This document shows positions 6,750 through 23,716 of a DNA stretch of 64,000 nt, piece after piece. The position numbers were made by a program, and so were the translations under genes. The notes under the pieces were generated by a model, which worked only from the letters and a program-made list of their open reading frames with translations, ran no database searches and was not told where the DNA came from. Numbering within the stretch: the first letter of the stretch is position 1; each line of letters starts with the position of its first letter. The stretch spans positions 192,001 to 256,000 of the forward strand of contig CAVRAY010000002.1 of the NCBI GenBank assembly GCA_963719225.1, written 5' to 3'. This DNA is from Thermoanaerobaculia bacterium (GTDB lineage: Bacteria; Acidobacteriota; Thermoanaerobaculia; UBA5066).

Positions 6750-8195
6750 ATGCAAGTTCCCTTCCGCCGCACCGCCGGGGCGCTTCTCGGCCTCGCTCTT
6801 CTTGCGGTTCCGGCCCCGGGAAACGCCGCCTCGCCGGCCGGGGCCGACACGTCAAGCGCCTGGCTGGACTCCACGTCCGCACGCTGGAACGAAATCGCCG
6901 AGAAGATCTGGGGCTTCTCCGAGACGGCGCTCCAGGAGACGAAGTCGTCCGCTCTCCTCGCCGACACTCTCGAAAAGGAAGGCTTCAGCGTGACGCGCGG
7001 CGTCGCGGGAATGCCGACGGCGTTCGTGGCTTCAGCGGGAGCTGGCGCGCCCGTCATCGGGGTCCTCGCCGAGTACGACGCGCTGCCCGGCCTTTCACAG
7101 ACGGCAGGCGCGCCGAAGAAGTCGCCGCTCGCCTCCGCGCCAGCTCCCGGCCACGGGTGCGGTCACAACCTCCTGGGCACGGCGGCAGTCGCGGCCGCCG
7201 TCGCGGCGAACCGCACCCGCGTCGCGGGGAAGCTTCCCGGCACGATCCGCGTCTTCGGCACGCCGGCCGAAGAGCAGCTCCTCGGCAAGCCGTTCATGCT
7301 CAGGGACGGCTCTTTCGCGGGAACCGATGCCGTCCTCGCCTGGCACCCAGCGGACGCGAACTACGTGTGCACGAAGCCTTATCTCGCGATCACCGCACTC
7401 GACGTGGAGTTCTTCGGAAAGACGGCGCATGCCGCGATGAACCCCTGGCTCGGGCGGAGCGCGCTCGACGCCGTCGAGCTGTTCGACCACGCCCTCGCGC
7501 TCATGCGGGAGCACGTGCTCCCGACCGCGCGCCTCCATCGCGCGATCAAGAGTGGCGGCCTCGCGGCGAACATCATCCCGGACTATGCCCGCGTCCAGTG
7601 GTTCGTGCGGGACGAGAACGGAGAACGCGTGAACGAGATGGTCGGGCGCCTGAAGAAGGCAGCCGAGGGCGCGGGTCTCGCGACCGAGACGACGTCGAAG
7701 GTGAGCCTTCTCGCCTCGACGCGCGAGCCGCTCTTCAACGCCGAGCTCTCGAAGGTCCTCCAGAGACATCTCGCCCTCGTCGGGGCGCCGAAGTGGGATG
7801 CCGCCGATGTCGCGCTCGCGCGCGGTGTCCAGAAAGAGGTCGGCATTCCCGAGGCCGGCCTTTCGGACACGGTCCTCCCATATGGTCCCGGGCACGGGTC
7901 CGGGGCTTCGTCGGACGTGGGCGAGGTGAGCGCGGCATTGCCGGTCGCCGAGCTCGCGGTCGCGACGGGGGCCGTGGGCCAGCCGTGGCACCACTGGGCC
8001 GTGACGTCCTGCTCGGGGCACGCGCTCGGCCGAAAGGGCATGCTCGTCGCGGCCAAGGTCCTCGCCGCGACGATGACGGATCTCCTGGGCGATGCCGCGA
8101 CCGTCGCCGCCGCGAAGGCCGAGTTTCAGAAGGCGACCGCCGGCAAGCCCTACGTCAGCCCGCTCGCGAAGGACGCGGTGCCGAAGATCTACTGA
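6750..8195 (+). CDS. M20 amidohydrolase (AbgB-like), secreted
   Basis: EYDALPG, GHGCGHNLLG, GTPAEE and SSDVGEVS motifs; signal peptide. Confidence 0.9.
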   Translation: MQVPFRRTAGALLGLALLAVPAPGNAASPAGADTSSAWLDSTSARWNEIAEKIWGFSETALQETKSSALLADTLEKEGFSVTRGVAGMPTAFVASAGAGAPVIGVLAEYDALPGLSQTAGAPKKSPLASAPAPGHGCGHNLLGTAAVAAAVAANRTRVAGKLPGTIRVFGTPAEEQLLGKPFMLRDGSFAGTDAVLAWHPADANYVCTKPYLAITALDVEFFGKTAHAAMNPWLGRSALDAVELFDHALALMREHVLPTARLHRAIKSGGLAANIIPDYARVQWFVRDENGERVNEMVGRLKKAAEGAGLATETTSKVSLLASTREPLFNAELSKVLQRHLALVGAPKWDAADVALARGVQKEVGIPEAGLSDTVLPYGPGHGSGASSDVGEVSAALPVAELAVATGAVGQPWHHWAVTSCSGHALGRKGMLVAAKVLAATMTDLLGDAATVAAAKAEFQKATAGKPYVSPLAKDAVPKIY

Positions 8196-9364
8196 TCGCC
8201 GGGGGCGTCCACCGCGCGAAGCACGCCGTAGTCGACGAGCTTCCGGACGAGCTGCCGTCGCAGGACGAGCCCGTGGTCCTTCTTGATCGCCCTGAGCGCG
8301 TCGGGCACCTTCGAGCCGTCGAAGGCGGGAAGCGCCGGGAGGAGCACGGCGGGGGCATCGATGGGGTCGTAGGCGCTGTAGGTGGCCAGGCGAACGGTCC
8401 CATGTCCGACGCCAATGACGCTGAGGTTGCCGACCTCGAGGCGCTCCGGAAGTGCGTCGCTGGTCACCGCGTCGTAAGCAGCGCGTGCGAGCTGCGCGTG
8501 GAGAGCGACGGTCGCACCTCCGATGCGCTCCACGGCCTTCCACTCCAGGTTCCGGACGATCGCGTCGCATTCGCGGTAGAGCTCCTGCTCGCGTCCGGCC
8601 CAGCTTCCCCAGAGGGACCTGTACCTCTCGGGGCTTACGGTGCCGTCGATCTCGTCGCCCTTGACGGCTTCCGTCCGCCTTTGTGATGGCGGAAGTTTGA
8701 GCGGAAAGTTCACGCGGAGCGCTGCGTGGTCGAAACCGAGGGTGACGAGGCAGTGGATCGCGAGGTTTTCCTCGATGGCCGTCAGCAGCTCCCTGGCCGA
8801 GTCCCAGAACCGCTTCGCCGTGTCCCCGCGCTCGTGCTTGCAGAACCAGGTCATGCAGACGGAATTGCGATGACGCCAGATCCCGCATTCGCCGCCGATC
8901 CGGTCTTCGAGGTAATAGGGGCAGAGCATCGCCTCGCTGTGGCCGAAGACCCCGTCCCCGTGGTCGTACAGGAGGTTGTACGCCCCGCCGGCGCCGACCC
9001 AGAGCGGCGTCACGCCGACTTTCTTTCCGATCCTCTCCACGACGCGGGCCCGCCCTTCGGCCATGTCGGGTGACCCGTCCGCCAGGATCGCCCCGACGAG
9101 AAAGTTGTGAAGCTTCGGCAGGTACGTGCAGCACTTCGTCTTCGGGTTGAAGTAGACCGCGTCACGCTCTCCGTCCGCGCCGCCGGACACGGGCAGCATC
9201 GCGCAGTTCTCGCACGTGGCGTGCGGCTCGGAGGGGATCTTGCCCCCGAGCGCCGCCTCGAGCCAGCGCGCGTGGAGCGGCGCCAGGCCCTTGGCGGGAG
9301 CGTCGGCGATAAAAGGGAGCCGGACCATGGGAGCCCTGGGGCGTGTCACCTGGTCATTGCTCAC
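8189..9364 (-). CDS. Cys-cluster (YkgJ/CxxCxxCC-like) protein with putative C-terminal RRE/PqqD-like domain; candidate peptide maturase, copy 2
   Basis: CENC...KCC...CPYY...CGIWRHRNSVC...FC pattern; C-terminus FDGSKVPDAL...LVRKLVDYGVL; about 85% identical (manual count) to 10618-11796. Confidence 0.75.
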   Translation of the reverse strand: MSNDQVTRPRAPMVRLPFIADAPAKGLAPLHARWLEAALGGKIPSEPHATCENCAMLPVSGGADGERDAVYFNPKTKCCTYLPKLHNFLVGAILADGSPDMAEGRARVVERIGKKVGVTPLWVGAGGAYNLLYDHGDGVFGHSEAMLCPYYLEDRIGGECGIWRHRNSVCMTWFCKHERGDTAKRFWDSARELLTAIEENLAIHCLVTLGFDHAALRVNFPLKLPPSQRRTEAVKGDEIDGTVSPERYRSLWGSWAGREQELYRECDAIVRNLEWKAVERIGGATVALHAQLARAAYDAVTSDALPERLEVGNLSVIGVGHGTVRLATYSAYDPIDAPAVLLPALPAFDGSKVPDALRAIKKDHGLVLRRQLVRKLVDYGVLRAVDAPGDQ

Positions 9365-9372
9365 TAATAGAT

Positions 9373-9522
9373 CTAGGGGGAGGCCTTGTCGATATGCTTG
9401 GGGATCGAAAGATCACCGTGGTCGACCCTCCCCCCGCGGACCTTCCCGCCCTTGGCGGGCTTGACGTCGAGGTTCTTGGCCATTCTCTTTTGAGCCTTAG
9501 GTTTCTCCTTCGCGATTTTCAT
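9373..9522 (-). CDS. double-glycine precursor peptide P10 (core RVDHGDLSIPKHIDKASP, Hcp-like)
   Basis: MKIAKEKPKAQKRMAKNLDVKPAKGGKVRGG|RVDHGDLSIPKHIDKASP; RBS AAAGGAG. Confidence 0.88.
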   Translation of the reverse strand: MKIAKEKPKAQKRMAKNLDVKPAKGGKVRGGRVDHGDLSIPKHIDKASP

Positions 9523-9539
9523 GTCTCTACTCCTTTGAA

Positions 9540-9686
9540 TCAAAGCTTCTTGACGCCGCCGCCGGAGCCCCCCGGCAGTTTGTCCATGCCGCCGCGGACC
9601 GCCCCGCCCCTGGACGGCTTGACCTCGAGGTCCTTGACGGTCTTCTTTCGCGAAGCCTTCGGGTTCTTCTTCGCAACCTTCTTCAT
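9540..9686 (-). CDS. double-glycine precursor peptide P9 (core MDKLPGGSGGGVKKL)
   Basis: MKKVAKKNPKASRKKTVKDLEVKPSRGGAVRGG|MDKLPGGSGGGVKKL; RBS AAAGGAG. Confidence 0.88.
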   Translation of the reverse strand: MKKVAKKNPKASRKKTVKDLEVKPSRGGAVRGGMDKLPGGSGGGVKKL

Positions 9687-9910
9687 GTCCTCGCTCCTTT
9701 CTTCCTGTGTCGGTCGTGGCCTGGCTTCGGCCTTCGCTCGGCCGGAGCATCCTTGAACGGCGGCTCTTCCTCTGTCTTGGGGATCGGGGGACGTTCACCA
9801 AAGACCGTCTTCTGTGCAGCGCCCCCCTTGGGGTCGTTTCGGGGGACGAGGTCCCTGAGGGGTACGAACCCCGGCGACGGCTCCTTCCTGCGGCGCCTTG
9901 GCTTCGTCAT
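9683..9910 (-). CDS. second-type precursor-like peptide Q2 (LRDLVPRNDPKGG leader)
   Basis: MTKPRRRRKEPSPGFVPLRDLVPRNDPKGG|AAQKTVFGERPP...; paralog of 12170-12394; stop overlaps P9 start (ATGA). Confidence 0.75.
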   Translation of the reverse strand: MTKPRRRRKEPSPGFVPLRDLVPRNDPKGGAAQKTVFGERPPIPKTEEEPPFKDAPAERRPKPGHDRHRKKGART

Positions 9911-9917
9911 GCCGGCT

Positions 9918-9988
9918 TCGATGTCGACGGGCACGCGGAAGCTCTCGACGGCCTGGCCGCGGTCATCCGCGCCCGAAAGGAAGAACGA
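9918..9988 (-). repeat. diverged 71-bp copy of an internal segment of the VWA gene (6365-6441)
   Basis: 37/38 nt identical over the first block; encodes SFFLSGADDRGQAVESFRVPVDI versus SFFLAGDVTDDKGQAVESFRVPVDI. Confidence 0.9.
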
Positions 9989-10106
9989 TTTGGGTTTGGC
10001 CGTAGCCCCCACGGACTGTCCCGCCCTTCGCGGGCTTGACCCCGAGGTTCTTCGTCGCCTTGGTAGTCCTTGACTTGGAGGCCGTCTCCCTCGGGGTCTT
10101 TTTCAT
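9963..10106 (-). CDS. double-glycine precursor peptide P8 (core YGQTQIVLPFGRG)
   Basis: MKKTPRETASKSRTTKATKNLGVKPAKGGTVRGG|YGQTQIVLPFGRG; RBS AAAGGAG. Confidence 0.85.
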   Translation of the reverse strand: MKKTPRETASKSRTTKATKNLGVKPAKGGTVRGGYGQTQIVLPFGRG

Positions 10107-10160
10107 GTCGTTTCTCCTTTCTTCCTTTTTCGGCCGTGAACGGGCTCGAGGGACGGTCGA

Positions 10161-10289
10161 CTATTTGGGCCAGTATCTCCCCCCCAGGCCTCCGCGGACG
10201 GTCCCGCCCTTGGCGGGCTTGACCTCGAGGTTCTTGGCCGCCTTCTTCTGAGAAGCCTTCGTGGCGCTTTTCTTCGTGGTCTTCTTCAT
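10161..10289 (-). CDS. double-glycine precursor peptide P7 (core LGGRYWPK)
   Basis: MKKTTKKSATKASQKKAAKNLEVKPAKGGTVRGG|LGGRYWPK; RBS AAAGGAG. Confidence 0.88.
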   Translation of the reverse strand: MKKTTKKSATKASQKKAAKNLEVKPAKGGTVRGGLGGRYWPK

Positions 10290-10377
10290 GTCGTCTCTCC
10301 TTTCTTCCTGTTTCGCTCGTGACCCTGTTTCGAGTGCTTGACGAGCATCCCATGTCGGAGGTGCATCATCTCGGGAT

Positions 10378-10554
10378 TCACTTGACCTTCGTGTTTATCG
10401 ACGCTGCAAGACTCGTGCGAACCCCGAGAGCTTGGAGCTCCACAGCGGTGGGACCTCCGCGAACATCGCCGCTCTTGTCGCGCCTGACCTCGAGATCCTT
10501 GACCGCCTTCCTGTGTGTACCCTTCCCTTCGCCTTTCTTCGTGGTCTTCATCAT
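10378..10554 (-). CDS. double-glycine precursor peptide P6 (core PTAVELQALGVRTSLAASINTKVK)
   Basis: MMKTTKKGEGKGTHRKAVKDLEVRRDKSGDVRGG|PTAVELQ...; RBS GAGGAG. Confidence 0.86.
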   Translation of the reverse strand: MMKTTKKGEGKGTHRKAVKDLEVRRDKSGDVRGGPTAVELQALGVRTSLAASINTKVK

Positions 10555-10617
10555 GTCGTTTCTCCTCTTTTCCTGTTCCAGTCGTGACCCGGCTTCTGCC
10601 TTCTCATCGAGTTCTGG

Positions 10618-11796
10618 TTAGACGTGCTCGTCTTCGGGGGCGTCCACCGCGCGAAGAACGCCGTAGTCGACGAGCTTTCGGACGAGCTCGAGGCTCAGGA
10701 CGAGCCCGTGGTCCTTCTCGATCGCCCGAAGGGCGTCACGCACCTTCGAGCCGTCGAAGGCGGGAAGCGCCGGGAGGAGCGCGGCGGGCGCATCGGTCGG
10801 GTCGTAGGCGCTGTACGTGGCCAGGCGCACGGTCCCATGCCCGACGCCGATGACGTTGAGGTTGCCGATCTCGAGGCGCTCCGGAAGAGCGGAACTCGTC
10901 ACCGCCCGGTACGCGGCGCGTGCGAGCTGCGTGAGGAGAGCGACGGTCGCGCCGCCGATCCTCTCGACGTCCTTCCACTCCATGTCCCGGACGATCCCGT
11001 CGCTTTGGAGGTAGAGCTCCTTCTCGCGTCCGGCCCAGCTTCCCCAGAGGGCCTTGTACCTCTCGGGGCTCACCGTGCCGTCGAGCTCGTCCCCCTTCAC
11101 GGTTTCCGTCCGCTGAGACTTCGGAACCTTGAACGGGAAATTGGTCCGGAGCGCCGCGTCGTCGAAACCGAGGGTGACGAGGCAGTGGATCGCGAGGTTC
11201 TCCTCGACGGCCATCAGCAGCTCGTTGGCCGAGTCCCAGAACCGCTTCGCCGTGGCCCCTCGCTCGTGCTTGCAGAACCAGGTCATGCAGATGGAATTGC
11301 GGTGACGCCAGATCCCGCAGCCGCCGCCCATCCGGTCTTCGAGGTAGTAGGGGCAGCGCATCGCCTCGCTGTGGCCGAAGACCCCGTCACCGTGGTCGTA
11401 CATGAGGCCGTACGCTCCGCCGGCGCCAACGGAGAGCGGCGTCACGCCGACCTTTCTTCCGATCCTCTCCAGAACGCGCGCCTGTCCTTCGGCCATGTCG
11501 GGCGCCTCGTCTGCGAGGATCGCGCCGACGAGAAAGTTGTGAAGTCTCGGCAGGTAGGTGCAGCACTTCGTCTTGGGATTGAAGAAGACCGCGTCCCGGG
11601 CCCCGTCCGCGCCGCCGGGCACCGGGAGCATGACGCAGCTCTCGCATGTGGCGTGGGGCTCGGAGGGGATTTTTCCTCCGAGAGCCGCTTCGAGCCAGCG
11701 CGCATGGAGCGGCGCCAGGTCCTTGGCGGCAGCGCTGGCGATGAAAGGGAGCCGGACCATGGGAGCCCTGGGGCGTGTCACCTGCTCATTGCTCAC
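10618..11796 (-). CDS. Cys-cluster (YkgJ/CxxCxxCC-like) protein with putative C-terminal RRE/PqqD-like domain; candidate peptide maturase, copy 1
   Basis: CESC...KCC...CPYY...CGIWRHRNSIC...FC pattern; paralog of 8189-9364; GTG start just after precursor P5. Confidence 0.75.
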   Translation of the reverse strand: MSNEQVTRPRAPMVRLPFIASAAAKDLAPLHARWLEAALGGKIPSEPHATCESCVMLPVPGGADGARDAVFFNPKTKCCTYLPRLHNFLVGAILADEAPDMAEGQARVLERIGRKVGVTPLSVGAGGAYGLMYDHGDGVFGHSEAMRCPYYLEDRMGGGCGIWRHRNSICMTWFCKHERGATAKRFWDSANELLMAVEENLAIHCLVTLGFDDAALRTNFPFKVPKSQRTETVKGDELDGTVSPERYKALWGSWAGREKELYLQSDGIVRDMEWKDVERIGGATVALLTQLARAAYRAVTSSALPERLEIGNLNVIGVGHGTVRLATYSAYDPTDAPAALLPALPAFDGSKVRDALRAIEKDHGLVLSLELVRKLVDYGVLRAVDAPEDEHV

Positions 11797-11804
11797 TAAT
11801 AGAT

Positions 11805-11942
11805 CTAGGGGGAGGCCTTGTCGATATGCTTCGTGATGAGAAGGTCGCCTCCGCGAACCGCTCCGCCCTTGCCTGGCTTGACGTCGAGGTCCTTGGCCGC
11901 CTTCTTGGCCTTCGAGGGGGTCTTTTTAGTGGTCTTCTTCAT
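11805..11942 (-). CDS. double-glycine precursor peptide P5 (core DLLITKHIDKASP, Hcp-like)
   Basis: MKKTTKKTPSKAKKAAKDLDVKPGKGGAVRGG|DLLITKHIDKASP; RBS AAGGAG. Confidence 0.88.
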   Translation of the reverse strand: MKKTTKKTPSKAKKAAKDLDVKPGKGGAVRGGDLLITKHIDKASP

Positions 11943-11993
11943 GTCGTTTCTCCTTCCTTCCTGTTTCAGTCGTGACCCGAACATGAAACGCAA

Positions 11994-12173
11994 TTAGTGT
12001 TTCCGCCATACCTCAATGACCACTTCCTTAATGTGCTCTCCCTTGATGGGAATGATGTCTCCGAGGCCATGCCCTCCACGGACCGTCCCACCCTTGGCGG
12101 GCTTGACGTCGAGGTTCTTCAGTGCCCTCTTGCGCGAGGCCTTCGCGGCGCTTTTCTTCGTGGTCTTTTTCAT
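11994..12173 (-). CDS. double-glycine precursor peptide P4 (core HGLGDIIPIKGEHIKEVVIEVWRKH, Hcp-like)
   Basis: MKKTTKKSAAKASRKRALKNLDVKPAKGGTVRGG|HGLGDIIPIKGEHIKEVVIEVWRKH; RBS AAAGGAG. Confidence 0.88.
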   Translation of the reverse strand: MKKTTKKSAAKASRKRALKNLDVKPAKGGTVRGGHGLGDIIPIKGEHIKEVVIEVWRKH

Positions 12174-12394
12174 ATCGGTTCTCCTTTCTTCCTGCTTCGG
12201 TCGTGACCCGGCTTCTGCCTTCGTTCCGCCGGAACATCTTTAAGGGGGTGGTTATCTTCTGTCTCGAGGATCTGGGGACGTTCGCCGAAGACCGTCTTCC
12301 CCGCCGACCCCCCCTTGGGGTCGTTTCGGGGGACGAGGTCCCTGAGGGCGACGAACCCGGGCGGCGTCTTCGTCTTGCGGCGGCCCTTCTTCAT
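12170..12394 (-). CDS. second-type precursor-like peptide Q1 (LRDLVPRNDPKGG leader)
   Basis: MKKGRRKTKTPPGFVALRDLVPRNDPKGG|SAGKTVFGERPQ...; start overlaps the GT41 stop and its own stop overlaps the P4 start. Confidence 0.75.
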   Translation of the reverse strand: MKKGRRKTKTPPGFVALRDLVPRNDPKGGSAGKTVFGERPQILETEDNHPLKDVPAERRQKPGHDRSRKKGEPI

Positions 12395-13896
12395 CACGCC
12401 GCCACCGGTGCGGGAAAGCAACCGCGTTCCTCGCCGCTGCCTCGCGCCTCCGAGCGAGATCGCGCGCGCCAGAGCTGGAAATAGACATCCTCGATGCAGC
12501 GCGCGAGCCTCGCGCAGTCGGTGACGGGCGAGGCCTTCAGGCGCTTCCTCATCGTGCGCCGTAGCTCTTCGCGTCTTTCCGCTTTTGCCGCCGATCCCCA
12601 TCGAATGGCCGTCTCGACGTACCCGCGCACGTCCCGGCTGACGAACTTCCCGAGACCGGCGTTTTCCAGCAGCGACGCGCTGGTACGCGAGATCCACCGA
12701 TCCCCCGAGAACGCGACGACCGGAACGCCCTGCCAGATGGCTTCCGTGGTCGTCGTGCCCCCGTTGTACGGGAACGTGTCGAGGGCGAGGTCGATGGCGT
12801 CGTAGTTTCGGAGGAAGTCGTAGTGCTCCGCAGGTCCGAGCATCGCCACGCGCTCGGGCTCGATGCCGCGCCGCGTGAATCGCGCGAGTGTGTGCTTGCG
12901 ATTGCCGGGGTCTCCCAGAGCGGCGTTGGCCAGGAGAAAGCGGCTTCCGGGGCATCGCCTCAGGATCTCGGCCCACGCGGCGACGACGCCGTCGTTGAGC
13001 TTGTAGAGCGACGAGAGACTGCCGAACGTGACGAAGCCGTTCTTGAGCGACGGCGGTGGCGCGACATCGGGGACCGGGTAATTCACCGCGAACGTCAGAG
13101 ACGAGAGCGGGAGCTCGACGACCTGCTCTCCATACCAGTGCTTCTCGCCGTCACGAATGAGCCAACGATCGCCGATCAGCGCATCGAACACGGGCAACCC
13201 GGAGGTTCCGAAGATGTTGAACCACGCCACGACGACTGGAGCCAGCCTCGTCGCGAACAGCGGCAGCCGGCCCACCCGACTGTACTGGTTGAGATCCACG
13301 AGAACGTCGAGCCCCGCCCGGGCGATCCGGCACGCGGCCGCGCCGTTGTCGAGGCGCGAGATGTCGTGGACGTGCGCCCCGCTCGTACGCGCCCGGCGGC
13401 GCACGGCGGAAGGGCGCGACGCGTCGGAAAAAAGGTGGACCTCCACCCTGCCGGGGTCGTGGTGATCGATCAGCCCCCACACCGGCTTCATCCAGTTGTC
13501 TGCGTGGAAAAACGACGAGACGTAGCCGATCTTTAGTACTTTCCTGACCGGGCTGCCGACGACGATCGCCCTGGCGGGCGCGACGGCTCGGGCGCGAACC
13601 GCGTCGCCCAGCGCGCGGCGGACCTTCAGGATCGCCGCGTGGTCCAGGCGCGGGTCGAACGGGGCGATCGTCGCGAGGAGCCGCTGGGCTCGGATGTCCG
13701 TACGAATCCGGAGAGACGCCCGAAGATGCCGGGTCGCCCTCTCGACCTCACCGAGCGCGAAGGTCGCCCGGGCGAGGTAATAACGTGCGGCCGCAGAATC
13801 CGGACTCGCCCGGACGGCCGATTCGAAGACAGCGAGGCCGCTCGCGTACTTGCCGGCCGCGAGCATGCGACGGCCATTCGGGCAGCCGGCGATCAT
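12394..13896 (-). CDS. TPR + GT41 (OGT/SPINDLY-like) glycosyltransferase
   Basis: N-terminal TPR; LKIGYVSSFF, DVLVDL, RLAPVVVAW, VTFGS..LYKLN and DLALDTFPYNGGTTTTEAIWQGVPVV motifs; ATG 13896 overlaps P3 stop (TGATG). Confidence 0.88.
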   Translation of the reverse strand: MIAGCPNGRRMLAAGKYASGLAVFESAVRASPDSAAARYYLARATFALGEVERATRHLRASLRIRTDIRAQRLLATIAPFDPRLDHAAILKVRRALGDAVRARAVAPARAIVVGSPVRKVLKIGYVSSFFHADNWMKPVWGLIDHHDPGRVEVHLFSDASRPSAVRRRARTSGAHVHDISRLDNGAAACRIARAGLDVLVDLNQYSRVGRLPLFATRLAPVVVAWFNIFGTSGLPVFDALIGDRWLIRDGEKHWYGEQVVELPLSSLTFAVNYPVPDVAPPPSLKNGFVTFGSLSSLYKLNDGVVAAWAEILRRCPGSRFLLANAALGDPGNRKHTLARFTRRGIEPERVAMLGPAEHYDFLRNYDAIDLALDTFPYNGGTTTTEAIWQGVPVVAFSGDRWISRTSASLLENAGLGKFVSRDVRGYVETAIRWGSAAKAERREELRRTMRKRLKASPVTDCARLARCIEDVYFQLWRARSRSEARGSGEERGCFPAPVAA

Positions 13897-14069
13897 CAGG
13901 ACTTGAGCCGCGTGTCGTGACTCCACTGAGTGCTTTGAATTTCGATCCAATCCGTGTGTCGCACCTCTCCACCACGGACCGTCGCGCCCTTGGCGGGCTT
14001 GACCCGGAGGTTTCGGACGGGCTTCTTGTGAGCGGCCTTCGGCGCGGTTCTCTTGGTTGTTTTCTTCAT
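13896..14069 (-). CDS. double-glycine precursor peptide P3 (core EVRHTDWIEIQSTQWSHDTRLKS, Hcp-like)
   Basis: MKKTTKRTAPKAAHKKPVRNLRVKPAKGATVRGG|EVRHTDWIEIQSTQWSHDTRLKS; RBS AAAGGAAG. Confidence 0.88.
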   Translation of the reverse strand: MKKTTKRTAPKAAHKKPVRNLRVKPAKGATVRGGEVRHTDWIEIQSTQWSHDTRLKS

Positions 14070-14591: not shown

Positions 14592-15566
14592 TCACTTCGT
14601 GTCGCTGAGCTTCCTCTCGAGTCGGGCGCGGGAGATGCCGAGGGCCCGGGCTGCTCTCGTCTTGTTGCCGGAGAGCTCCCGGAGGACCCGGCGGATGTGG
14701 TTCTGCTCGACGGTTCGGAGACTCAGGTCGGTTGCGGGTGCCGGCCGCGCGGCGGAAGGCGGCGCTCCGGAGACGCCGTCGTTTTGGATCGGGACTGAGA
14801 GTTCCTCGATCACGCTGCCCTCGGTCATCGCAATGGCGGCGTGAATGACGAGGTCGAGCTCGCGCAGGTTCCCGGGCCAGTGGTACGAGAAGAGAGCATC
14901 CGCGGCCTTCTGTGAGAGGCCGGAGATGGCCCGTCCCTGCGCATGGGCGGCGCGGCGGATCGAGGCCGCGACGAGCTCGCGCAGGTCGTTCGGCCTCTCG
15001 CGCAGCGGGGGAAGGGTGACCGTGAGCCCCGCGAGCCTGTAGAAGAGGTCGCTCCGGAACTGCTCGGTGTTCGCGAACCGCGCGAGGGCGTGGCGCGTGG
15101 CCGAGATCAGCCGCACGTCCGCCGTGCGCAGGCGCTCGGAGCCGAGCCTCTCGAATTCGCCGTATTCGACCGCCCTGAGGATCTTCGCCTGGGCGAGCGG
15201 GCTCATGTCGGCGATCTCGTCGATGAAGAGGGTGCCGCCGTCGGCGATCTCGAACTTGCCGCGCACCTGCCGCTTCGCGTCCGTGAACGCGCCTTTCTCG
15301 TGGCCGAAGAGCTGGCTGTCGAGGAGCGTGTCGGAGAGGGCGGCGGCGTTGAAAGAGACGAAGGGGGCCGACGCCCTGAGAGAGGAGTTGTGGATGGCCT
15401 GGGCGAGGAGCGTCTTGCCGGTGCCTGACTCGCCGAGGAGGAGGAGCGGAAGCTCGGTCCGGCAGGCGGCGCGCGCCACGTCGAGGCACCGCCGCATCGC
15501 GGCGTCGGCTGTTCGGAAGCTCTCGAGCGTGAGGCGTGCCGCGTCGGGGAAGCTCTCCCGGGTCAC
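14592..15566 (-). CDS. sigma54-dependent transcriptional activator lacking an N-terminal sensory domain (AAA+ and Fis HTH only)
   Basis: GESGTGKT, LFGHEKGAFTDA, LFIDEI, FRSDLFYRL, WPGNLREL and GNKTRAARALGISR motifs; GTG overlaps HlyD stop. Confidence 0.9.
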   Translation of the reverse strand: MTRESFPDAARLTLESFRTADAAMRRCLDVARAACRTELPLLLLGESGTGKTLLAQAIHNSSLRASAPFVSFNAAALSDTLLDSQLFGHEKGAFTDAKRQVRGKFEIADGGTLFIDEIADMSPLAQAKILRAVEYGEFERLGSERLRTADVRLISATRHALARFANTEQFRSDLFYRLAGLTVTLPPLRERPNDLRELVAASIRRAAHAQGRAISGLSQKAADALFSYHWPGNLRELDLVIHAAIAMTEGSVIEELSVPIQNDGVSGAPPSAARPAPATDLSLRTVEQNHIRRVLRELSGNKTRAARALGISRARLERKLSDTK

Positions 15567-16765
15567 CGGATGTTCTCCCTCAGCTGCCGGAGCGGCTCGA
15601 AAGCGTACTCGACGAGAGTCCGACGGCCGACGACGATCCGCGCCATCCCGCGCATTCCCGCGAGGAGCGGTTTGCGCTCTCCGTCCGCCGCGACGGTTTG
15701 CTCGTCCAGGTCGACGAGGACGGGAAATGTCGCCGTCTCGCGGATCCCGACGCCGGAGGGGCTGGCCCACCGGACTGTCCCTCCGCGGACGCCATAGCGC
15801 TGGTACGGGAACGCCTCGAGGAGGAGACGAACGTTCTGGCCGGGGCGAATCCGGGCGAGGCCGCCCTGCGGAAGTGCCAGCTCGGCCTGAAGAGTTTCGG
15901 CGGAGCACGCGACCTCCGCGAGGACGTCGCCGTCACGGACCACAGCTCCTGCCCGCCTCGCCGTGACCCCGAGAACCGTGCCGTCGCAGGGAGAGTTGAC
16001 GGCCAGCTCGTTTCCAAGCCCGTCTCCGCCTGCGGAGGGCGCCTCGCCGCTGAGCGCCCCGATCCTGATTCTCGCCTGCGCGATCTTCTCTGCGAGGACC
16101 CGCTCCTCCTCGTGGAATTCCATCCCTTTGGCCGCCTCGGTGTCGCGGAGCTTTTCGATGGCGCTTCCGGTCGCGCCCCGCTCGGCCTGGAGCTGCTCGA
16201 GCTCCATCACGGCCTGGCTGTGCCGGATCTGGGCGTCGGAGCGCTCGTTCAGGCTCGCGAGCCCCTGGTCGGCGAGCTTCTTCGCGCGCTCGGACTGCTC
16301 CTTCGTCAGGACGAGCTGCTCCCTTTTCAGGGCCAGCATCCGATCGAGATAATCCGCGCGATCGGCGAGGCTCCGGGCCTCCTCGCGCCTCGCGCTCGCC
16401 TCGCTTTCGAATCTCCTCCGGGCATTGGAAAGGCTCTCGGCAAGGCCGCCGAGACCGGCTTCGAGCGCCTTCCGCTCGGACGCCCGGTCGGCGAATTCCT
16501 GTGACCGGATGGCGAAGAGCCTCGCCCCCCTGAGCACCGGGCGCCCCTCGACGGCGAGCACGTCCGTGACGGTTCCCCCGCGCGGAGCGCGGACCGGGTC
16601 GGTGCCGCGCACCGGCACCAGCGCGAACGGGGCAACGACCGTCTCCGGGACCTTGACGGCCACCGAGACGATCGCCGCGGCCACGAAGAGAGCGATCAGG
16701 ATCCAGGCGAGGCTCCGCGCGGCGAACGGCGGCGGGTCGCTCGGGAGAAACGGCGTCTCGTCCAT
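15563..16765 (-). CDS. HlyD-family membrane fusion protein
   Basis: N-terminal TM, coiled coil, AFPYQRYG and LLAGMRGMARIVVGRRTLVEYAFEPL motifs. Confidence 0.92.
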   Translation of the reverse strand: MDETPFLPSDPPPFAARSLAWILIALFVAAAIVSVAVKVPETVVAPFALVPVRGTDPVRAPRGGTVTDVLAVEGRPVLRGARLFAIRSQEFADRASERKALEAGLGGLAESLSNARRRFESEASARREEARSLADRADYLDRMLALKREQLVLTKEQSERAKKLADQGLASLNERSDAQIRHSQAVMELEQLQAERGATGSAIEKLRDTEAAKGMEFHEEERVLAEKIAQARIRIGALSGEAPSAGGDGLGNELAVNSPCDGTVLGVTARRAGAVVRDGDVLAEVACSAETLQAELALPQGGLARIRPGQNVRLLLEAFPYQRYGVRGGTVRWASPSGVGIRETATFPVLVDLDEQTVAADGERKPLLAGMRGMARIVVGRRTLVEYAFEPLRQLRENIR

Positions 16766-19700
16766 CTAGATCCCCAGCTGCTGGCTCGAGAGGTAGTAGT
16801 AGAGGCCCTGGCGGTCCATCAGCTCGTCGTGGATCCCCTGCTCGACCAGACGCCCCTTCTCCAGCACGAGGATGACGTCCGCGTCGCGGATGGTGCTGAG
16901 CCGGTGCGCGATCACGAATGACGTCCGGCCTTCCAGAAGGCGGTCGAGGTTCTCCTTGACCGCCCGTTCCGACTCGCTGTCCAGTGAGCTGGTCGCTTCG
17001 TCGAAGATCAGCACCGGGGGCCGGTTGTAGATGGCACGCGCGATGGCGATGCGCTGCTTCTGTCCGCCGGAAAGAGCGAGGCCCGACTCGCCGACCCGGG
17101 TGTCGTAGCCCAGGGGAAACCTCTCCACGAACTCGTGGGCGCTCGCGACGCGGGCAGCCCAGAGAACCCGGTCCATGTCGGGCTCGGCGTCGCCGAAGGC
17201 GATGTTCCGCGCGATCGTCTCGTCGAAGAGGTAGTTCTCCTGGAGGACGAAGCCGACGCGCCGCCGGAGGTCCCTGTAGTTCAGCTTTTCGAGGTCCACT
17301 CCGTCGAAGAGGATCGATCCCTCGGTCGCCTCCAGGAGGCCGGAGAGGAGCTTGGCGAGCGTCGTCTTGCCGGAGCCGCTTCGGCCGACGACCGCCACCA
17401 TCTTTCCGGGCTCCACGTCGAAGGTGAGACCCTCGAGGATCTTCGGCGACTCGGGCCCGCCGTACTGGAAGCCGACGTTCCTGAGCGAGACCTTTCCCGC
17501 GAGCGTTCGGACCGGAATGAGCGCGGACCGGTCGTCGCCCTGCTCGGGGGTCTGCTCGAAGACGTCGTTCAGGCGGTCGAGGAGGACCGTGCCGTACTGG
17601 AGGTGGTCCCAGGTCGCGAGCAGGATCCCGATCGGCGCGTTCGCGAGGGCCACGAGCGCGTTGAACGCGACTAGCCCGCCGATGGTGAGCGACCCGCGCA
17701 TCACCTGGAGCGCGCCCGCCCACAGAAAGAGGGCGACCGAGAGGAAGCTCACGGCCTGGACGGCGCCCTCGTAGGTCATCACGGTGAAGTCGGCGCGAAA
17801 CTGCTTGCGGGCGAGGCCGAGGAACCGTTCCAGCATCAGCTGCCTGAGTGAGCCTTCGGCTCCGAGCGACTTGACGGTCTCGATCCCCTTGATGGTGTCG
17901 ATCTGATGGGCCGAATACTTTCCGAACGCCTCCTCGAGCGTGTCGAAGACGGGACGGAGCTTCCGCCGCGAATACCTCATCAGGAGGGCGTAGAGGGGAA
18001 CGGTCGCGAGGAAGACTCCCGCGAGGAGGGGGCTGTAGACGAACATCAGGACCACGACTGCGGCGAGCTGGGAGAGGGCGGTCAGGGAGGAGACCCCGTA
18101 CTGGACCAGGAGCTCGCGCACCTGACGGAGGCCCATGAGACGGCGCTGGATGTCCCCCGTCTTCCGCGTCGAGAAGTAGGACATCGGAAGCGACAGGAGG
18201 CGCCGGGTGATGAAGTCGAGCGTCGCGGCGTCGATCCGGACTGCGGCGAAGCTCAACAGGTATCGCTGCAGCACCATCGCCAGGGTCGAGAAAACGAGGA
18301 CGCCTCCCATCCCGAGGAGAAGAATCCGGAGCAACCCCTCGTCGCGCTCGACGAGAACCCGGTCGACGATCACCTGGCTGAAGACCGGCAGCACCATCTG
18401 CAGGATGCTGACGATCAACGCCAGAGCGGCCGCCTTCGCGAGGAGAGCGGCGTGCGGCCGAAAGAAGCGGGTGAGCCACGCGAAGCTCGAGCGTCCCACC
18501 GGAGCCTTCTCGAACGCTTCCGTGTAGTCGAAGAGGGCAGCGTAACCCGTCCACTCCTTCTCGACCTCTGCGCGCGGCAGGAGCCGGAGCCCGACCCCAG
18601 GGTCGGCCAGGCGAACGTCCGCCGGGTTCGTGTCGTAAAGGACGACCCAGTGGTTGCCGCCCCAGTGAAGGATGGCGGGGAGCGGCATCTGGTCCAGGTG
18701 CCGCGCCGAGGCCTTGACGGAGCGCGCGGCGAGTCCCAGCTCCTCGGCTCCGCGGCAGATCGCCCGGAGGCTCGTGCCGTCGGTCGATGTGAAGAGGAGC
18801 TGCCGGATCCGCGCCAGGCTCACCGCGCGGCCGAAGTGGCGACAGACCATCGCCAGGGAAGCCGCGCCGCAGTCCATCTCGTCGATCTGCCGGATGAAGC
18901 GGAAACGGCGGATCCGCCGAGCCTTCTTGGTGAACCGACCGTCCTCCGTCGCGAAGGGAGCGGCGGGCTCCTCGCCCGCTGCTTCGTCCGCCCGGCCGCC
19001 GGCATCCTCGTCGACTTGGTCCGGACCCACCTCCTCCACCGCCGCCTCCGCGGGCAGGAGCTCGTCGGCGAAGTCGAGCGGAACCGTCGCCTCCTTTCGG
19101 TAGTCGTACTGGGCGATACGCCGGCCGATGGCCGCGCGGAACCCGGGATGCGCCTCGGTGACGGCCCGGAAGGCGGTCGGGTGCAGGCTCAGGAGCCGAC
19201 AGGGCGTGACGGCCTCGACTGTGGCCTTTCTCGGTTCTCCCGTGAACGCCGAGATCTCGCCGAAGACATCGCCTTTCCGGAGGTAGGCGATGTTTCGCAG
19301 GTGCCCGTCCTCCTCGGCGAAGGCGCGAAGCCTTCCTTCCTCGACGACGAAAAGAGGTCCTTCCCCGTCTCCCTGTCGGAACACGGTCTCCCCTGCGGCG
19401 ACGGCGATCGTCTCGAACCGGTGGAGGAGCCCGGCGAGGACCGCTGGCGGAAGCGTGGAGAACGGGGTGTAGAGACGGAAGAGGTTCTGGAGGCTCCGGT
19501 ACCGGCTGTGGAGCTCCAGGCAGGTCCGGATCTCGGGATCGCCGGAGAGAAGCTCGTCGAAGGCGCTTCGGTCGAGCCGGAGGACCGTCGCGGCGCTCGA
19601 CGCGCGCACCGTGGCCTGCCGCCTGGCGGAGTCGTCCAGGAGACCCATTTCGCCGAAGCTGTCCCCGGGACGAAGCACGCCGAGCGAAACCTCCTCGCCC

Positions 19701-19948
19701 CGCTCTCCCATCTTCACCGCACGGGCTTTCCCGGCCACGAGGACGAAGAAGGCGTCCGCGGGATCGCCCTCGCGAAGGATGACGGCGCCGAAGGGAAAGG
19801 AGACGGGGACGAACTTCCCGGTCACCGCGGCGCGAGACGCAGGCGAGAGGAACTTCAGGAGCGGCAGGTCGTCGAGGAGGGCCCGCGCCGCCTCCACCTC
19901 CGGCGGGAGGGACGACTTCGCCTTGCTCTTCAAGGCTTCCATAGCCAC
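16766..19948 (-). CDS. peptidase-containing ABC transporter with two cNMP-binding domains, C39 peptidase, TMD and NBD
   Basis: FGEMGLL..RQATV and FGEISAF..RKATV (cNMP); QIDEMDCGAASL, LHWGGNHWVV, LADP (intact C39 Cys/His/Asp); GRSGSGKT, LSGGQKQR, IFDEATS. Confidence 0.94.
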   Translation of the reverse strand: MAMEALKSKAKSSLPPEVEAARALLDDLPLLKFLSPASRAAVTGKFVPVSFPFGAVILREGDPADAFFVLVAGKARAVKMGERGEEVSLGVLRPGDSFGEMGLLDDSARRQATVRASSAATVLRLDRSAFDELLSGDPEIRTCLELHSRYRSLQNLFRLYTPFSTLPPAVLAGLLHRFETIAVAAGETVFRQGDGEGPLFVVEEGRLRAFAEEDGHLRNIAYLRKGDVFGEISAFTGEPRKATVEAVTPCRLLSLHPTAFRAVTEAHPGFRAAIGRRIAQYDYRKEATVPLDFADELLPAEAAVEEVGPDQVDEDAGGRADEAAGEEPAAPFATEDGRFTKKARRIRRFRFIRQIDEMDCGAASLAMVCRHFGRAVSLARIRQLLFTSTDGTSLRAICRGAEELGLAARSVKASARHLDQMPLPAILHWGGNHWVVLYDTNPADVRLADPGVGLRLLPRAEVEKEWTGYAALFDYTEAFEKAPVGRSSFAWLTRFFRPHAALLAKAAALALIVSILQMVLPVFSQVIVDRVLVERDEGLLRILLLGMGGVLVFSTLAMVLQRYLLSFAAVRIDAATLDFITRRLLSLPMSYFSTRKTGDIQRRLMGLRQVRELLVQYGVSSLTALSQLAAVVVLMFVYSPLLAGVFLATVPLYALLMRYSRRKLRPVFDTLEEAFGKYSAHQIDTIKGIETVKSLGAEGSLRQLMLERFLGLARKQFRADFTVMTYEGAVQAVSFLSVALFLWAGALQVMRGSLTIGGLVAFNALVALANAPIGILLATWDHLQYGTVLLDRLNDVFEQTPEQGDDRSALIPVRTLAGKVSLRNVGFQYGGPESPKILEGLTFDVEPGKMVAVVGRSGSGKTTLAKLLSGLLEATEGSILFDGVDLEKLNYRDLRRRVGFVLQENYLFDETIARNIAFGDAEPDMDRVLWAARVASAHEFVERFPLGYDTRVGESGLALSGGQKQRIAIARAIYNRPPVLIFDEATSSLDSESERAVKENLDRLLEGRTSFVIAHRLSTIRDADVILVLEKGRLVEQGIHDELMDRQGLYYYLSSQQLGI

Positions 19949-20928
19949 GTGACCCTGTTGTCGACCTCGCGCGCGACGAGGCCTTCGAGGAGGCTGGACT
20001 CCGCCTTTTCCTTTACCTCGGGATCGTCCGGCATCGGCGGAATCTTCGCGCGGAGCGAGACGAGCACGAACTCGTCGCCGACGCTCACCGGACCGACGAG
20101 CTCTCCCGGGCGCGCCGAGAGCAGGACGTCCCGGACCTCAGGCTCAGCCTCGTCGAGAAACTCCACGCCTTCCTCCGTGGCTTCGCCGATTTCCTCCGCC
20201 AGCCTTTCGAGGGCGACTCCCTCCTGTCGCACCGCCATCGCCGCCTCGCGCGCGGCGTCCTCGCCGGGAAGCCTCAGGACGCTGCAGTCGATGCGGGTCC
20301 AATCGGTGAGGTGCGCCTTGACCCGCGCCGCCAGCGCATCGGGAGTGAGCACCTCATCGCGAAACCGCTCGTACGAGAGCTCCAGGCGAGCGAAGACCTC
20401 CCGCCGCTCGACGAGCGTCCCGGTCGGGCCTGGTTCTTCGTCGGGAGCCTGCGTCCGTTCCTTCTCCCTTTCCCCGATCGCGGCCCGCCCCGCGAGCTGC
20501 CGCGCCAGACGCTCCAGCTCTCCGGAACACACGGCCTCGCCGAGGACGGCCAGCTCGACCTGGCGAGGATCCACCTGGGGCTTGGCCGGAAGGACGAAGT
20601 CCGGAAGGCGGTCGCGGAGGAGGCTGGCGTGAATCCAGTCGAGCCAGGTCTCCGCGTCGAGGCGCCAGCGCGCGAGCCAGCGTTCCAGCTCCTCCGCGGT
20701 GATGAGGTCCCGCTCGTACCGGAAGTCGTCCGCGGCCCCGTCGATCTCATCTTGAGGAATGACGGCTTCCGCGGCCGTGTCCGCAAAGGCGAGAAGAGCG
20801 AGGTTGTCGAGAGCCCGCTCCTCGATCTCCTTCCAGTCGCCCCGCAGCTCCGCAGCCAGGACGACGTCCTCCCACCGGAAGACCCGGCCACCCGCGCAAA
20901 ATACGTCCCGCCCGAAGAGATCCTGCAC
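19930..20928 (-). CDS. acidic PpiC/SurA-related (peptidyl-prolyl isomerase-like) protein, type I secretion/peptide maturation associated
   Basis: EIDGAADDFRYERDLITAEELERWL and LLSARPGELVGPV resemble PPIase-like partners of cNMP-HlyB/HlyD systems; very Glu/Asp-rich. Confidence 0.7.
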   Translation of the reverse strand: MQDLFGRDVFCAGGRVFRWEDVVLAAELRGDWKEIEERALDNLALLAFADTAAEAVIPQDEIDGAADDFRYERDLITAEELERWLARWRLDAETWLDWIHASLLRDRLPDFVLPAKPQVDPRQVELAVLGEAVCSGELERLARQLAGRAAIGEREKERTQAPDEEPGPTGTLVERREVFARLELSYERFRDEVLTPDALAARVKAHLTDWTRIDCSVLRLPGEDAAREAAMAVRQEGVALERLAEEIGEATEEGVEFLDEAEPEVRDVLLSARPGELVGPVSVGDEFVLVSLRAKIPPMPDDPEVKEKAESSLLEGLVAREVDNRVTWLWKP

Positions 20929-22107: not shown

Positions 22108-22986
22108 TTACTGACCCGTGGCCTTCGCGGCCGGCGCCGCTCCCGGCGCTGCGGGGTTCGCCGAGCCCTCGACCTCGAAGGAGCCCTGGTAGAGCGCGAA
22201 CGCGCCCGGCACGACCTTCTGCTCGCGCGTGAGGCCGACGACGTACGCGTGCCGCCCCTCAGCGAGGTTCTCGATCCAAACGGGGTCCGCCTTCGTGAGC
22301 GTCACCTCGGGCTGCGTGTCGAGCTTGTAGCGCAGGCGACATGTGTCGGGCACGGTCTGCTCGGCGACGGGACAGCCGGTGACGAGGACGTCGAGGAGGA
22401 CTTTCCCGGCCGCGCCTTTCACCTTGCCGCGCGGAGAGACGATCGTGAGCACCGGCGTACCCGGCTCGACCGTATTCTTGCCGTCCTTTTCGCCGACGTG
22501 GAACGTGACCATCGCGAGAGCCGAAGGCTCCTTGATGGCCTCGCCCCACGGCCGGACGGGGAAGATCCTCACGGTGTGCGTACCCCTCGGGAGGCTCTTG
22601 AACGTGTACGGCTTCGTCGCATCGTGCCAGGGGAACATGACGCTGATGTTGTCGACGAGGATCTCCAGGTGCTGCCCGCTCTTCGTCGCCTCGTCCTGGA
22701 ACGTCTCGAAGTTCGTGAGCTCCACCTTGAGAGTGACCGGCGCTCCCTTTGCGGGGGGCTGACCGGCCTCGGGCTGCGGCACCGGGATGACTTCATCCGG
22801 AGCGGGCGCCACGATCTTGAGCGTGACCGGCCCGGTCGGGCCGCGCCCGTCCGCGAAGCCCTGCAACGGCGACTTCGGATCCTTCGGGGTCGCCGTCTGG
22901 GCCGAGAGAGGCCGGACGAGGACGAATGCGAGGCCCAGGGCGAGGATCTTGACCACGCGTGAGAGAGTCGGGTTCGCTGTATTCAT
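22108..22986 (-). CDS. hypothetical secreted beta-rich protein
   Basis: Signal peptide (…RPLSA-Q); GQHLEILVDN…GTHTVRIFPVRPWGEAIK. Confidence 0.7.
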   Translation of the reverse strand: MNTANPTLSRVVKILALGLAFVLVRPLSAQTATPKDPKSPLQGFADGRGPTGPVTLKIVAPAPDEVIPVPQPEAGQPPAKGAPVTLKVELTNFETFQDEATKSGQHLEILVDNISVMFPWHDATKPYTFKSLPRGTHTVRIFPVRPWGEAIKEPSALAMVTFHVGEKDGKNTVEPGTPVLTIVSPRGKVKGAAGKVLLDVLVTGCPVAEQTVPDTCRLRYKLDTQPEVTLTKADPVWIENLAEGRHAYVVGLTREQKVVPGAFALYQGSFEVEGSANPAAPGAAPAAKATGQ

Positions 22987-23086: not shown

Positions 23087-23716
23087 TCAGAACCGCTTCC
23101 AGCCGCTCGGAACCGTGAACAGGCCGGGATCAGCCCCCACTCGCACGTTCGTCAACGTCACGGTCGATTTCCGCGTCGTCCCGTTCGGTTCGCTCGTTTC
23201 GCGGTCGTAACGCGTCACGAGGCCGTCGAGGTCCGCCGTCACCCAGTATGTCGTCGTCGGTGACCCGGGCACCGCAGGATCGTCGTCGAACCGCCAGAGC
23301 GCGCACACGTGACCTGCGAACACCTCGTCTCCTTCACGATGGTAAATGGTGAGGTTTCGCCGCGCCGCCTCCGCTTTTTCGTCGAATCCCGGGGCAAGCG
23401 GGATTCCGCCGGGAAGCTCGCCGGCCGCCTCCGCGAACGGCACGTCCCGCGCCGTCTTCGAGGCCGGATCGAGGCGAAACGCCTTGCGGGCCGCCAGGTC
23501 GAGGACGAGCGCCGGGCCGTCCGCGGGTCCCTTGCGCCTGAGGTCGCGCAGCACAGCGAGGTCGAACGCGGCCTTCTCGACGCCGTCGGTCTTCAGCGTC
23601 ACGCGCGCGCGGTACCCGTGCGTCTTGGTGCGTGGAGGCGCGCCGAAAGGATCGGCGGCGCAGCCCGAAAGAAGCACGACGAGGACCCCCGGAAAAAAGG
23701 GCGGAGGCCGCCTCAA
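23087..23716 (-). CDS. hypothetical lipoprotein (DUF4412-like)
   Basis: TTG start overlapping upstream stop; LLSG-C lipobox; ends DPGLFTVPSGWKRF. Confidence 0.65.
   Translation of the reverse strand: MRRPPPFFPGVLVVLLSGCAADPFGAPPRTKTHGYRARVTLKTDGVEKAAFDLAVLRDLRRKGPADGPALVLDLAARKAFRLDPASKTARDVPFAEAAGELPGGIPLAPGFDEKAEAARRNLTIYHREGDEVFAGHVCALWRFDDDPAVPGSPTTTYWVTADLDGLVTRYDRETSEPNGTTRKSTVTLTNVRVGADPGLFTVPSGWKRF

Follow-up and report, generated by a model that had tools for sequence, protein, structure and literature searches.

Peptides with a double-glycine (GG) leader, among them class II bacteriocins, microcins and peptide pheromones, leave the cell through peptidase-containing ABC transporters (PCATs) of the TIGR01193/TIGR03796 type; PMC8939145 gives the GG as the site of C39 cleavage. 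Prochlorosins and the peptides of the NHLP/Nif11 type that are ribosomally synthesized and then modified post-translationally (RiPPs) combine many precursors, a conserved leader and hypervariable cores, arranged in tandem or dispersed over the genome (PMC10783134), while MirC, a TIGR04500 partner of the PpiC type, is required for maturation in the rosaritide system (PMC13097080). The locus described here is a peptide array in a 64,000-nt stretch, referred to as the window, of the genome of a Thermoanaerobaculia bacterium (GCA_963719225.1, contig CAVRAY010000002.1, here C2, positions 192001-256000); the proteins encoded there have their nearest named relatives in Thermoanaerobaculia too. With the first group the locus has in common the GG leader, a C39-ABC transporter with its catalytic motifs, an HlyD gene and TolC-like genes elsewhere; with the second, the numerous precursors with one leader and changing cores; and with the third, a PpiC/SurA-like gene beside the PCAT of a peptide cluster. 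In addition, stretches of 12-18 residues in four of its cores align to conserved motifs of Hcp/TssD (PF05638, TIGR03344; PDB 1Y12), the protein from which the tube of the T6SS (type VI secretion system) is built.

The array comprises nine intact precursors with a Lys-rich leader, one broken precursor gene, two GG peptides of a second type, a TPR-GT41 gene and two Cys-rich genes, and all genes of the window named below lie on the minus strand. The Lys-rich precursors keep the numbers P1 to P10 of an earlier, sequence-only reading, which had proposed that several cores mimic separate segments of Hcp. In a scan of the window peptides against 24,736 Pfam families, PF05638 (T6SS_HCP) was the sole family matched by P10 (9373..9522; E 0.0018, 19.0 bits) and P5 (11805..11942; E 0.13, 12.9 bits), both below the cut-off of 23.5 bits, and the remaining seven peptides, including P3 and P4, matched none. 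A profile of 162 positions, built from 41 Hcp proteins of the host's genus and applied with 1000 shuffles per core as the proposal had called for, gave significant scores for four cores (p 0.001-0.002). P3 (13896..14069, core 13899-13967) corresponds to Hcp 21-38, a loop and the second strand (26.1 bits, z 9.2); P10 (core 9376-9429) to Hcp 51-68 (22.7 bits, z 9.1); P5 (core 11808-11846) to Hcp 56-68 (21.5 bits, z 9.1); and P4 (11994..12173, core 11997-12071) to Hcp 76-87, the end of the helix and the fourth strand (18.5 bits, z 5.2). Reversed, the same four cores score 6.9-13.9 bits vs 18.5-26.1 in native order, and each outscores all 3000 length-matched segments of real open reading frames (ORFs) from the host genome. 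The resemblance to Hcp segments therefore stands for four of the nine cores against shuffled, reversed and real-protein controls. The Hcp1 segments quoted in the sequence-only reading agree with the chain in PDB 1Y12, and so do the identities counted against them (10/19 for P10 with its preceding Gly, 8/13 for P5); a PDB sequence search with P10 itself returned no match.

The four cores map to three Hcp regions (21-38, 51/56-68 and 76-87) that do not follow the gene order, which bears out the view that no single hcp gene was broken up to give the array. Nor was a full-length Hcp domain of about 160 residues found in it, the best score being 19.0 bits and the cores 13-25 residues long. A suggested echo of Hcp in the GGSGG of P9 did not rise above chance (p 0.13 against shuffles; p 0.06 in a second control run). 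The number of independent observations is further reduced by a tandem duplication, whose unit begins with the second-type peptide and ends with the Cys-rich gene. P5 and P10 share 27 identical bases at their 3' ends and each precedes one copy of the duplicated Cys-rich gene, so that the two stem from one duplication and the window holds three independent Hcp-like cores, not four. P9 (9540..9686) and P4 occupy paralogous positions in the duplicated block, yet their cores are unrelated, an indication that a core was replaced.

Similar peptides occur well beyond the window. Searches with PF05638 in 41 genomes gave 14 short matches in G029 and nine in G039, neither with a full-length Hcp, and most of the short matches fetched from these two genomes are GG peptides. 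A leader-only alignment was built to prevent circularity in counts of Hcp enrichment, and its profile matched 13 of the 151 genomes of the order (at least seven copies in nine of them, up to 46 in G029), and 300 further genomes sampled over the phylum gave no match; genome G025 enters only the genome tallies, and more distant lineages often carry other leaders. At p<0.01, 58 of the 131 peptides in the fetched regions are Hcp-like, a fraction inflated by the choice of G017, G029 and G039 loci partly on Hcp matches. In eight genomes reached by the leader alone, and unused in the leader profile, 16 of 42 peptides are Hcp-like. A leader search of 1.84 billion representatives returned 79 proteins, two without a usable GG and six already known, and 24 of the 71 new peptides are Hcp-like. 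In a partner-based sample, the loci of the best 79 of 252 relatives of the Cys-rich protein, 21 of 112 GG-type short ORFs are Hcp-like (in 17 loci, a few of which repeat peptides counted before). Among the Hcp-like loci are some from records titled Rokubacteria, Methylomirabilis, Gemmatimonadales and Polyangiaceae; the leader differs in part of them. Four of nine DNA runs, searched as well, yielded only short or diverged contigs. Homologous arrays are strongly enriched for Hcp-like cores, the opposite of the outcome that had been named as grounds for giving up the proposal, namely scores no better than those of shuffles and no enrichment.

Pooled over the family, 70 of 276 distinct cores reach at least 18 bits, vs none of the reversed cores and none of the real-protein segments in five draws. 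Compared with about 160 full-length Hcps, they have a median best identity of 59% (3/70 reach 80%), and identity is higher at conserved Hcp columns than at others (54% vs 34%). In the ESM Atlas the nearest neighbours of P10 are clusters of proteins 52-62 residues long, with partial PF05638 membership; such short matches in public clusters are probably peptides of this kind and not broken hcp genes, a point that matters for T6SS annotation. A separate leader class of the KLKLKRETL type, with Cys-containing cores (L041:18036, L042:5699, L049:14410, L051:212, L051:6599 and L051:12744), includes one peptide adjoining a LanC-like gene; these are probably lanthipeptide precursors and were excluded from the leader profile.

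The distribution of the matches over the Hcp fold was assessed with strands and helix assigned from a predicted model of a host Hcp (predicted local distance difference test, pLDDT, 87). The sequence-only reading had described the matched segments as beta-strand motifs; this holds for the window, where each of the four cores contains a strand, but not for the family as a whole. Among 79 Hcp-like cores, 47% of the matched residues lie on strands vs 51% of Hcp columns, mean coverage depth is 9.0 for strands, 9.7 for loops and 16.9 for the helix, 48 cores are less than half strand and 20 hold at least five helix residues. Coverage is deepest at the GES...HK loop (12-24) and at the strand-to-helix DKASP motif (59-71). 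Peaks at signature motifs without enrichment of strands are best fitted by linear-motif mimicry.

Resemblance to other machines was found at a much smaller number of cores. At p<0.01, where about three of 276 matches are nominally expected by chance, 92 cores match Hcp, nine the gp19-type tube (two of these being Hcp cross-matches), four VgrG and three a DUF1559-like pilin; four comparison families, one of them itself a tube-like secreted family, match 0, 0, 1 and 1. A 40-residue core at L232 matches VgrG (NF033848, E 1.6e-4; TIGR03361, E 0.0035; 1/27 proteins scanned) in a genome in which neither Hcp nor TssC was found. One core of G093 matches Tox-PAAR-like (E 0.0042; 1/54 scanned, with two unrelated weaker matches besides), and one core at L152 fuses a pilin-like motif with an Hcp motif. 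Genome searches with PF09392 and PF07596 matched no peptide core, and suspected likenesses of cores to Vibrio-type Hcp, to the ends of type III secretion system (T3SS) needles and to Flp pilin were confirmed by no search. Non-Hcp cores are mostly blank in Pfam, PHROGs and NCBIfam. Several non-Hcp motifs (NPQP, DGSV, LPAVQ, PTAVE and PPGP) recur across genomes and phyla, in cores at L078, L087, L100, L159, L168, P0133, P0141, P0177, P0183, P0194 and P0198, with a weak H-X9-DG match (E 0.029) as the sole lead to a source. Two further observations concern whole proteins. ORFs of about 165 aa at L131-L138 encode a conserved signal-peptide protein that weakly resembles the gp19 tube (E 1e-5 to 1e-2), similar weak gp19 matches being present in most genomes of family f2, and in G156 the signal-peptide proteins at L271:1495-2130 (minus strand) and L272 end in a helical segment resembling a T3SS needle (PF09392, E 0.001; TIGR02105, E 0.08).

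The host itself possesses a T6SS locus (contig C1:3140700-3167400), in which two hcp genes lie in tandem, and two solo hcp genes (C2:483705-484112 and C1:3227963-3228340); the array is on C2 and lies neither within nor next to a T6SS gene cluster. One of the tssC copies is split into three pieces, perhaps as a result of assembly indels, and a gp19-like gene is found at C1:3290929-3291318. When the DNA of these four genes was compared with the array, as had been suggested, none matched the cores: outside the array, blastn gave only 15-base chance words, and in-frame identity was at best 37-67%. Capture of the cores as DNA from the host's own hcp genes was accordingly rejected. The window cores share at most eight identical residues with the host's Hcps, and cores share 5-9 with any full-length Hcp compared, those of the host included. 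A leader fused to a full-length Hcp, as a possible ancestor, was also sought in a weak test that gave one match among 14 candidates, a plain Hcp. TssC is present in 3/9 array-rich genomes vs 46/151 overall, so that the arrays do not depend on a T6SS and do not shun one either; together with the host's own T6SS locus, these counts weaken the idea of a defence against T6SSs that is confined to unarmed cells. Visual inspection suggests a Sec-type signal peptide in 14 of 40 full-length Hcps of the genus (nine genomes, six without TssC). Going by these sequences, there appears to be a T6SS-independent family of secreted Hcp, and the lineage would then export Hcp surfaces apart from the weapon by two routes. 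Examples in relatives of the genus are L019, L022, L025-L028, L034, L035 and L040, and a similar protein is encoded at L274 in G152.

The pattern of Hcp-like cores is real, widespread and looks selected; its function we infer. With a probability of roughly 45%, the array encodes leader-tagged peptides with Hcp-motif cores that are exported and act outside the cell as linear-motif mimics, either signals or decoys. According to this proposal, duplication of a leader cassette followed by a core swap would give rise to new peptides, and cores would be kept for their resemblance to motifs that are conserved in subunits of the tube, spike and related kinds from many bacteria. Expression is predicted to be controlled by the sigma-54 activator of the locus; the Cys-rich protein with its RiPP recognition element (RRE), and possibly the GT41 enzyme, are predicted to bind the leader and modify the peptides, which would be cleaved at the GG and exported via the PCAT, HlyD and a TolC-like channel encoded elsewhere. 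The target would be a motif-binding receptor or sensor, the cell's own or a neighbour's, that is triggered or occupied by the peptides. In favour of mimicry are the enrichment obtained with the leader alone, the coverage peaks at signature motifs, the cores that resemble VgrG, PAAR-like and gp19-type proteins, the lack of a link to T6SS ownership and the apparent Sec-exported Hcps of the genus. A wider claim, which we regard as possible and offer only tentatively, is that bacteria of several phyla export libraries of probably modified peptides impersonating motifs of rival injection machines (Hcp chiefly, with VgrG, PAAR-like and contractile-tube motifs). This would imply receptors for pattern recognition, triggered or jammed, in a prokaryotic parallel to the sensing of flagellin epitopes. 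As ligands, the peptides would point to bacterial sensors of T6SS attack and could serve as probes for them.

Several observations weigh against linear-motif mimicry. Neither a receptor nor any other binding partner was found, the sole candidate, adjacent Ser/Thr kinases, having failed in G029. Five of the nine window cores are not significant against shuffles, and about two thirds of the family cores match no Hcp segment of the profile. The counts for VgrG and pilin-like cores are no higher than the number expected by chance and rest on individual matches, and needle-like cores have no family match. The presence of a strand in all four window cores suits strand interference as well. On the other side, nine cross-genome core pairs have synonymous (pS) and nonsynonymous (pN) differences of 0.17 and 0.05 overall, and a 16-residue core identical in G029 and G136, of different genera, has pS 0.55 and pN 0, a pattern that suggests selection on the peptide; however, the choice of pairs at >=70% amino-acid identity favours a low pN, and the same pattern would arise if conserved hcp genes had been captured repeatedly. 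As to the kinases, 3-10 of 32 dispersed G029 peptides lie within 1-10 kb of 61 Ser/Thr receptor kinases (p 0.19-0.35), and the pairing was rejected. The genome of G029, 5 Mb in size, carries these 61 kinase genes along with its 46 leader matches, and their adjacency is not significant.

A competing explanation, the poison or cap idea of the sequence-only reading, holds that the cores are assembly inhibitors which pair with or misfold Hcp/gp19-type subunits and so blunt rival T6SSs, contractile injection systems and phage tails. Such strand-containing cores as P3, P4, P5 and P10 would be suited to this, segments of the gp19-type tube, VgrG and PAAR-like kinds occur in the family as well, and an identity of merely 5-9 residues to full-length Hcps could spare the host's own tube. 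T6SS tubes are assembled in the cytoplasm of the attacker, however, which an exported 8-30-mer would have to reach; in the family, coverage of loops and the helix equals or exceeds that of strands, a T6SS is present in the host and two other array genomes, and the strand in P5 and P10 presumably lies inside the Hcp sheet, which we also count against inhibition. We therefore place it second after mimicry and consider it rather unlikely, while noting that inhibitors of this kind would be natural, sequence-guided blockers of T6SS or tail tubes. Both the ligand and the inhibitor explanations can be tested directly with synthetic peptides of 10-30 residues.

It has also to be considered that pieces of hcp-like genes are simply the raw material of a prochlorosin-like diversity generator, which would yield cationic peptides with an antimicrobial or signalling role, their Hcp likeness recording their origin. 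The different cores of P9 and P4 after duplication are what such a generator would produce, many cores in the family are padded, truncated or unmatched, tailoring enzymes vary between loci (GT41, B12 radical SAM, GT4-type and JmjC), and K or R is found among the last three residues of 175/276 cores. Yet a random source is unlikely to yield in-frame Hcp motifs in about one third of cores across phyla when the comparison families match at most one core each; the excess of identity at conserved Hcp columns and the lack of a DNA-level donor in the host also speak against it, and this origin is improbable in our view. Least credible is that the exported peptides co-assemble into a split ring or tube of Hcp, as the sequence-only reading had contemplated. 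The cores of G029 do tile 158/162 Hcp positions, but with an overlap of up to 7-fold and from loci partly fetched on Hcp matches; in the regions read from the other genomes, 6-107 positions are covered, and the peptide set of the host covers 48/162, with one region represented twice and no further copies found in its genome by leader search. A split tube is thus very improbable, and linear-motif mimicry remains the preferred reading.

The Lys-rich leader ends in V-R-G-G in all nine intact precursors and is without a matching leader family in Pfam or NCBIfam. The usual consensus of GG leaders has hydrophobic residues at -4, -7 and -12; in the host genome, Val occupies -4 in 9/9 precursors and -12 in most, and -7 is mostly Gly. 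Among the precursors that do not resemble Hcp, P1 (14262..14399) has a Pro-rich core, P6 (10378..10554) a core with a near-twin in P0181, P7 (10161..10289) a core of eight residues and P8 (9963..10106) a core that is not significantly Hcp-like (p 0.17). A closer relative of the P4 core is held by G137. P2 (14147..14254) is broken by a frame shift and a stop near the end of its leader and is either a pseudogene or an assembly error. A conserved GG peptide of a second type (L-x-D-L-x-P...KGG, then GKxxFG) had escaped the earlier reading; it is encoded at 12170..12394, with a second copy at 9683..9910 (repeat family D7), and recurs at exporter operons of G017 (five copies), G029, G039 and G061. 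Its constancy among the loci suggests a possible regulatory role.

The exporter operon precedes the array in the order PpiC-like, PCAT, HlyD and sigma-54 activator. The PpiC/SurA-like protein (19930..20928; PF13145, E 1.2e-5) is a distant relative of TIGR04500 (E 7e-8, below cut-off). The PCAT (16766..19948) contains by Pfam two cNMP-binding domains, a C39 peptidase domain, an ABC membrane domain and an ATPase domain, and scores below cut-off for TIGR03796 and TIGR01193 in NCBIfam; its C39 domain, the only one found in the host genome, retains the catalytic motifs C360, H433 and D449. It is followed by an HlyD-type periplasmic adaptor (15563..16765; PF13437, E 9e-17; TIGR01843) and by a sigma-54 activator with AAA+ and Fis helix-turn-helix domains (14592..15566, start approximate; PF00158, E 1e-58; PF02954), the N-terminal sensor region of which is almost nil. 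For the TolC-type channel, there are 13 OEP-domain matches elsewhere in the host genome. A scan for sigma-54 promoter boxes gave a single match with one mismatch, inside P6, vs 1.6 expected, and scans for sigma-70 promoters and terminators remained at chance level. Upstream of the operon, two ORFs on the minus strand (22249-22962 and 23087-24412) have no Pfam or NCBIfam match.

Within the array, the TPR-GT41 glycosyltransferase, similar to O-GlcNAc transferases (12394..13899, start approximate; PF13844, E 2e-37), is a candidate tailoring enzyme, and a gene of this type also adjoins the array of G017. The Cys-rich protein is encoded twice (copy 1, 10618..11796; copy 2, 8189..9364, 85% identical) and has an N-terminal region with conserved cysteines and a predicted C-terminal RRE. 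In a model of copy 1 (pLDDT 91), residues 291-378 align to TigE (Z 7.7), MccB (7.5), MibB (6.9) and the PbtF RRE (6.3), a middling range of Z, and there is a YkgJ-like lead (0.81) for the protein. On the strength of this model, the protein is a candidate maturase that would bind the leader; the RRE-like domain and the YkgJ-like lead together make it likely that the cores are modified.

In the main texts searched, mostly of non-subscription papers, no description of a peptide family with Hcp-derived cores was found, and the available part of a 2026 review of T6SS accessory factors (PMC13584744) contains none. Compared with GG-leader PCAT peptides, the array has a Lys-rich leader outside the known families and cores that are segments of a secretion-machine protein, and unlike those systems its locus shows no immunity gene or two-component sensor. 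In contrast to the prochlorosins and NHLP/Nif11 peptides, the locus has no LanM, YcaO, or Nif11 or NHLP leader match, its nine window cores contain no Cys, and its variable cores are recognizable Hcp motifs instead of free sequence. The PpiC-like match lies far below the TIGR04500 cut-off (32 vs 180 bits), and no graspetide synthetase is found at the array, which sets it apart from MirC. Unlike Hcp/TssD proper, the cores are fragments of 13-25 residues behind an export leader and outside a T6SS locus, incapable of the 160-residue fold. The export cassette is of a known kind and its hardware ordinary; variable cores chosen from conserved motifs of the structural protein of another machine are what the literature searched lacks.

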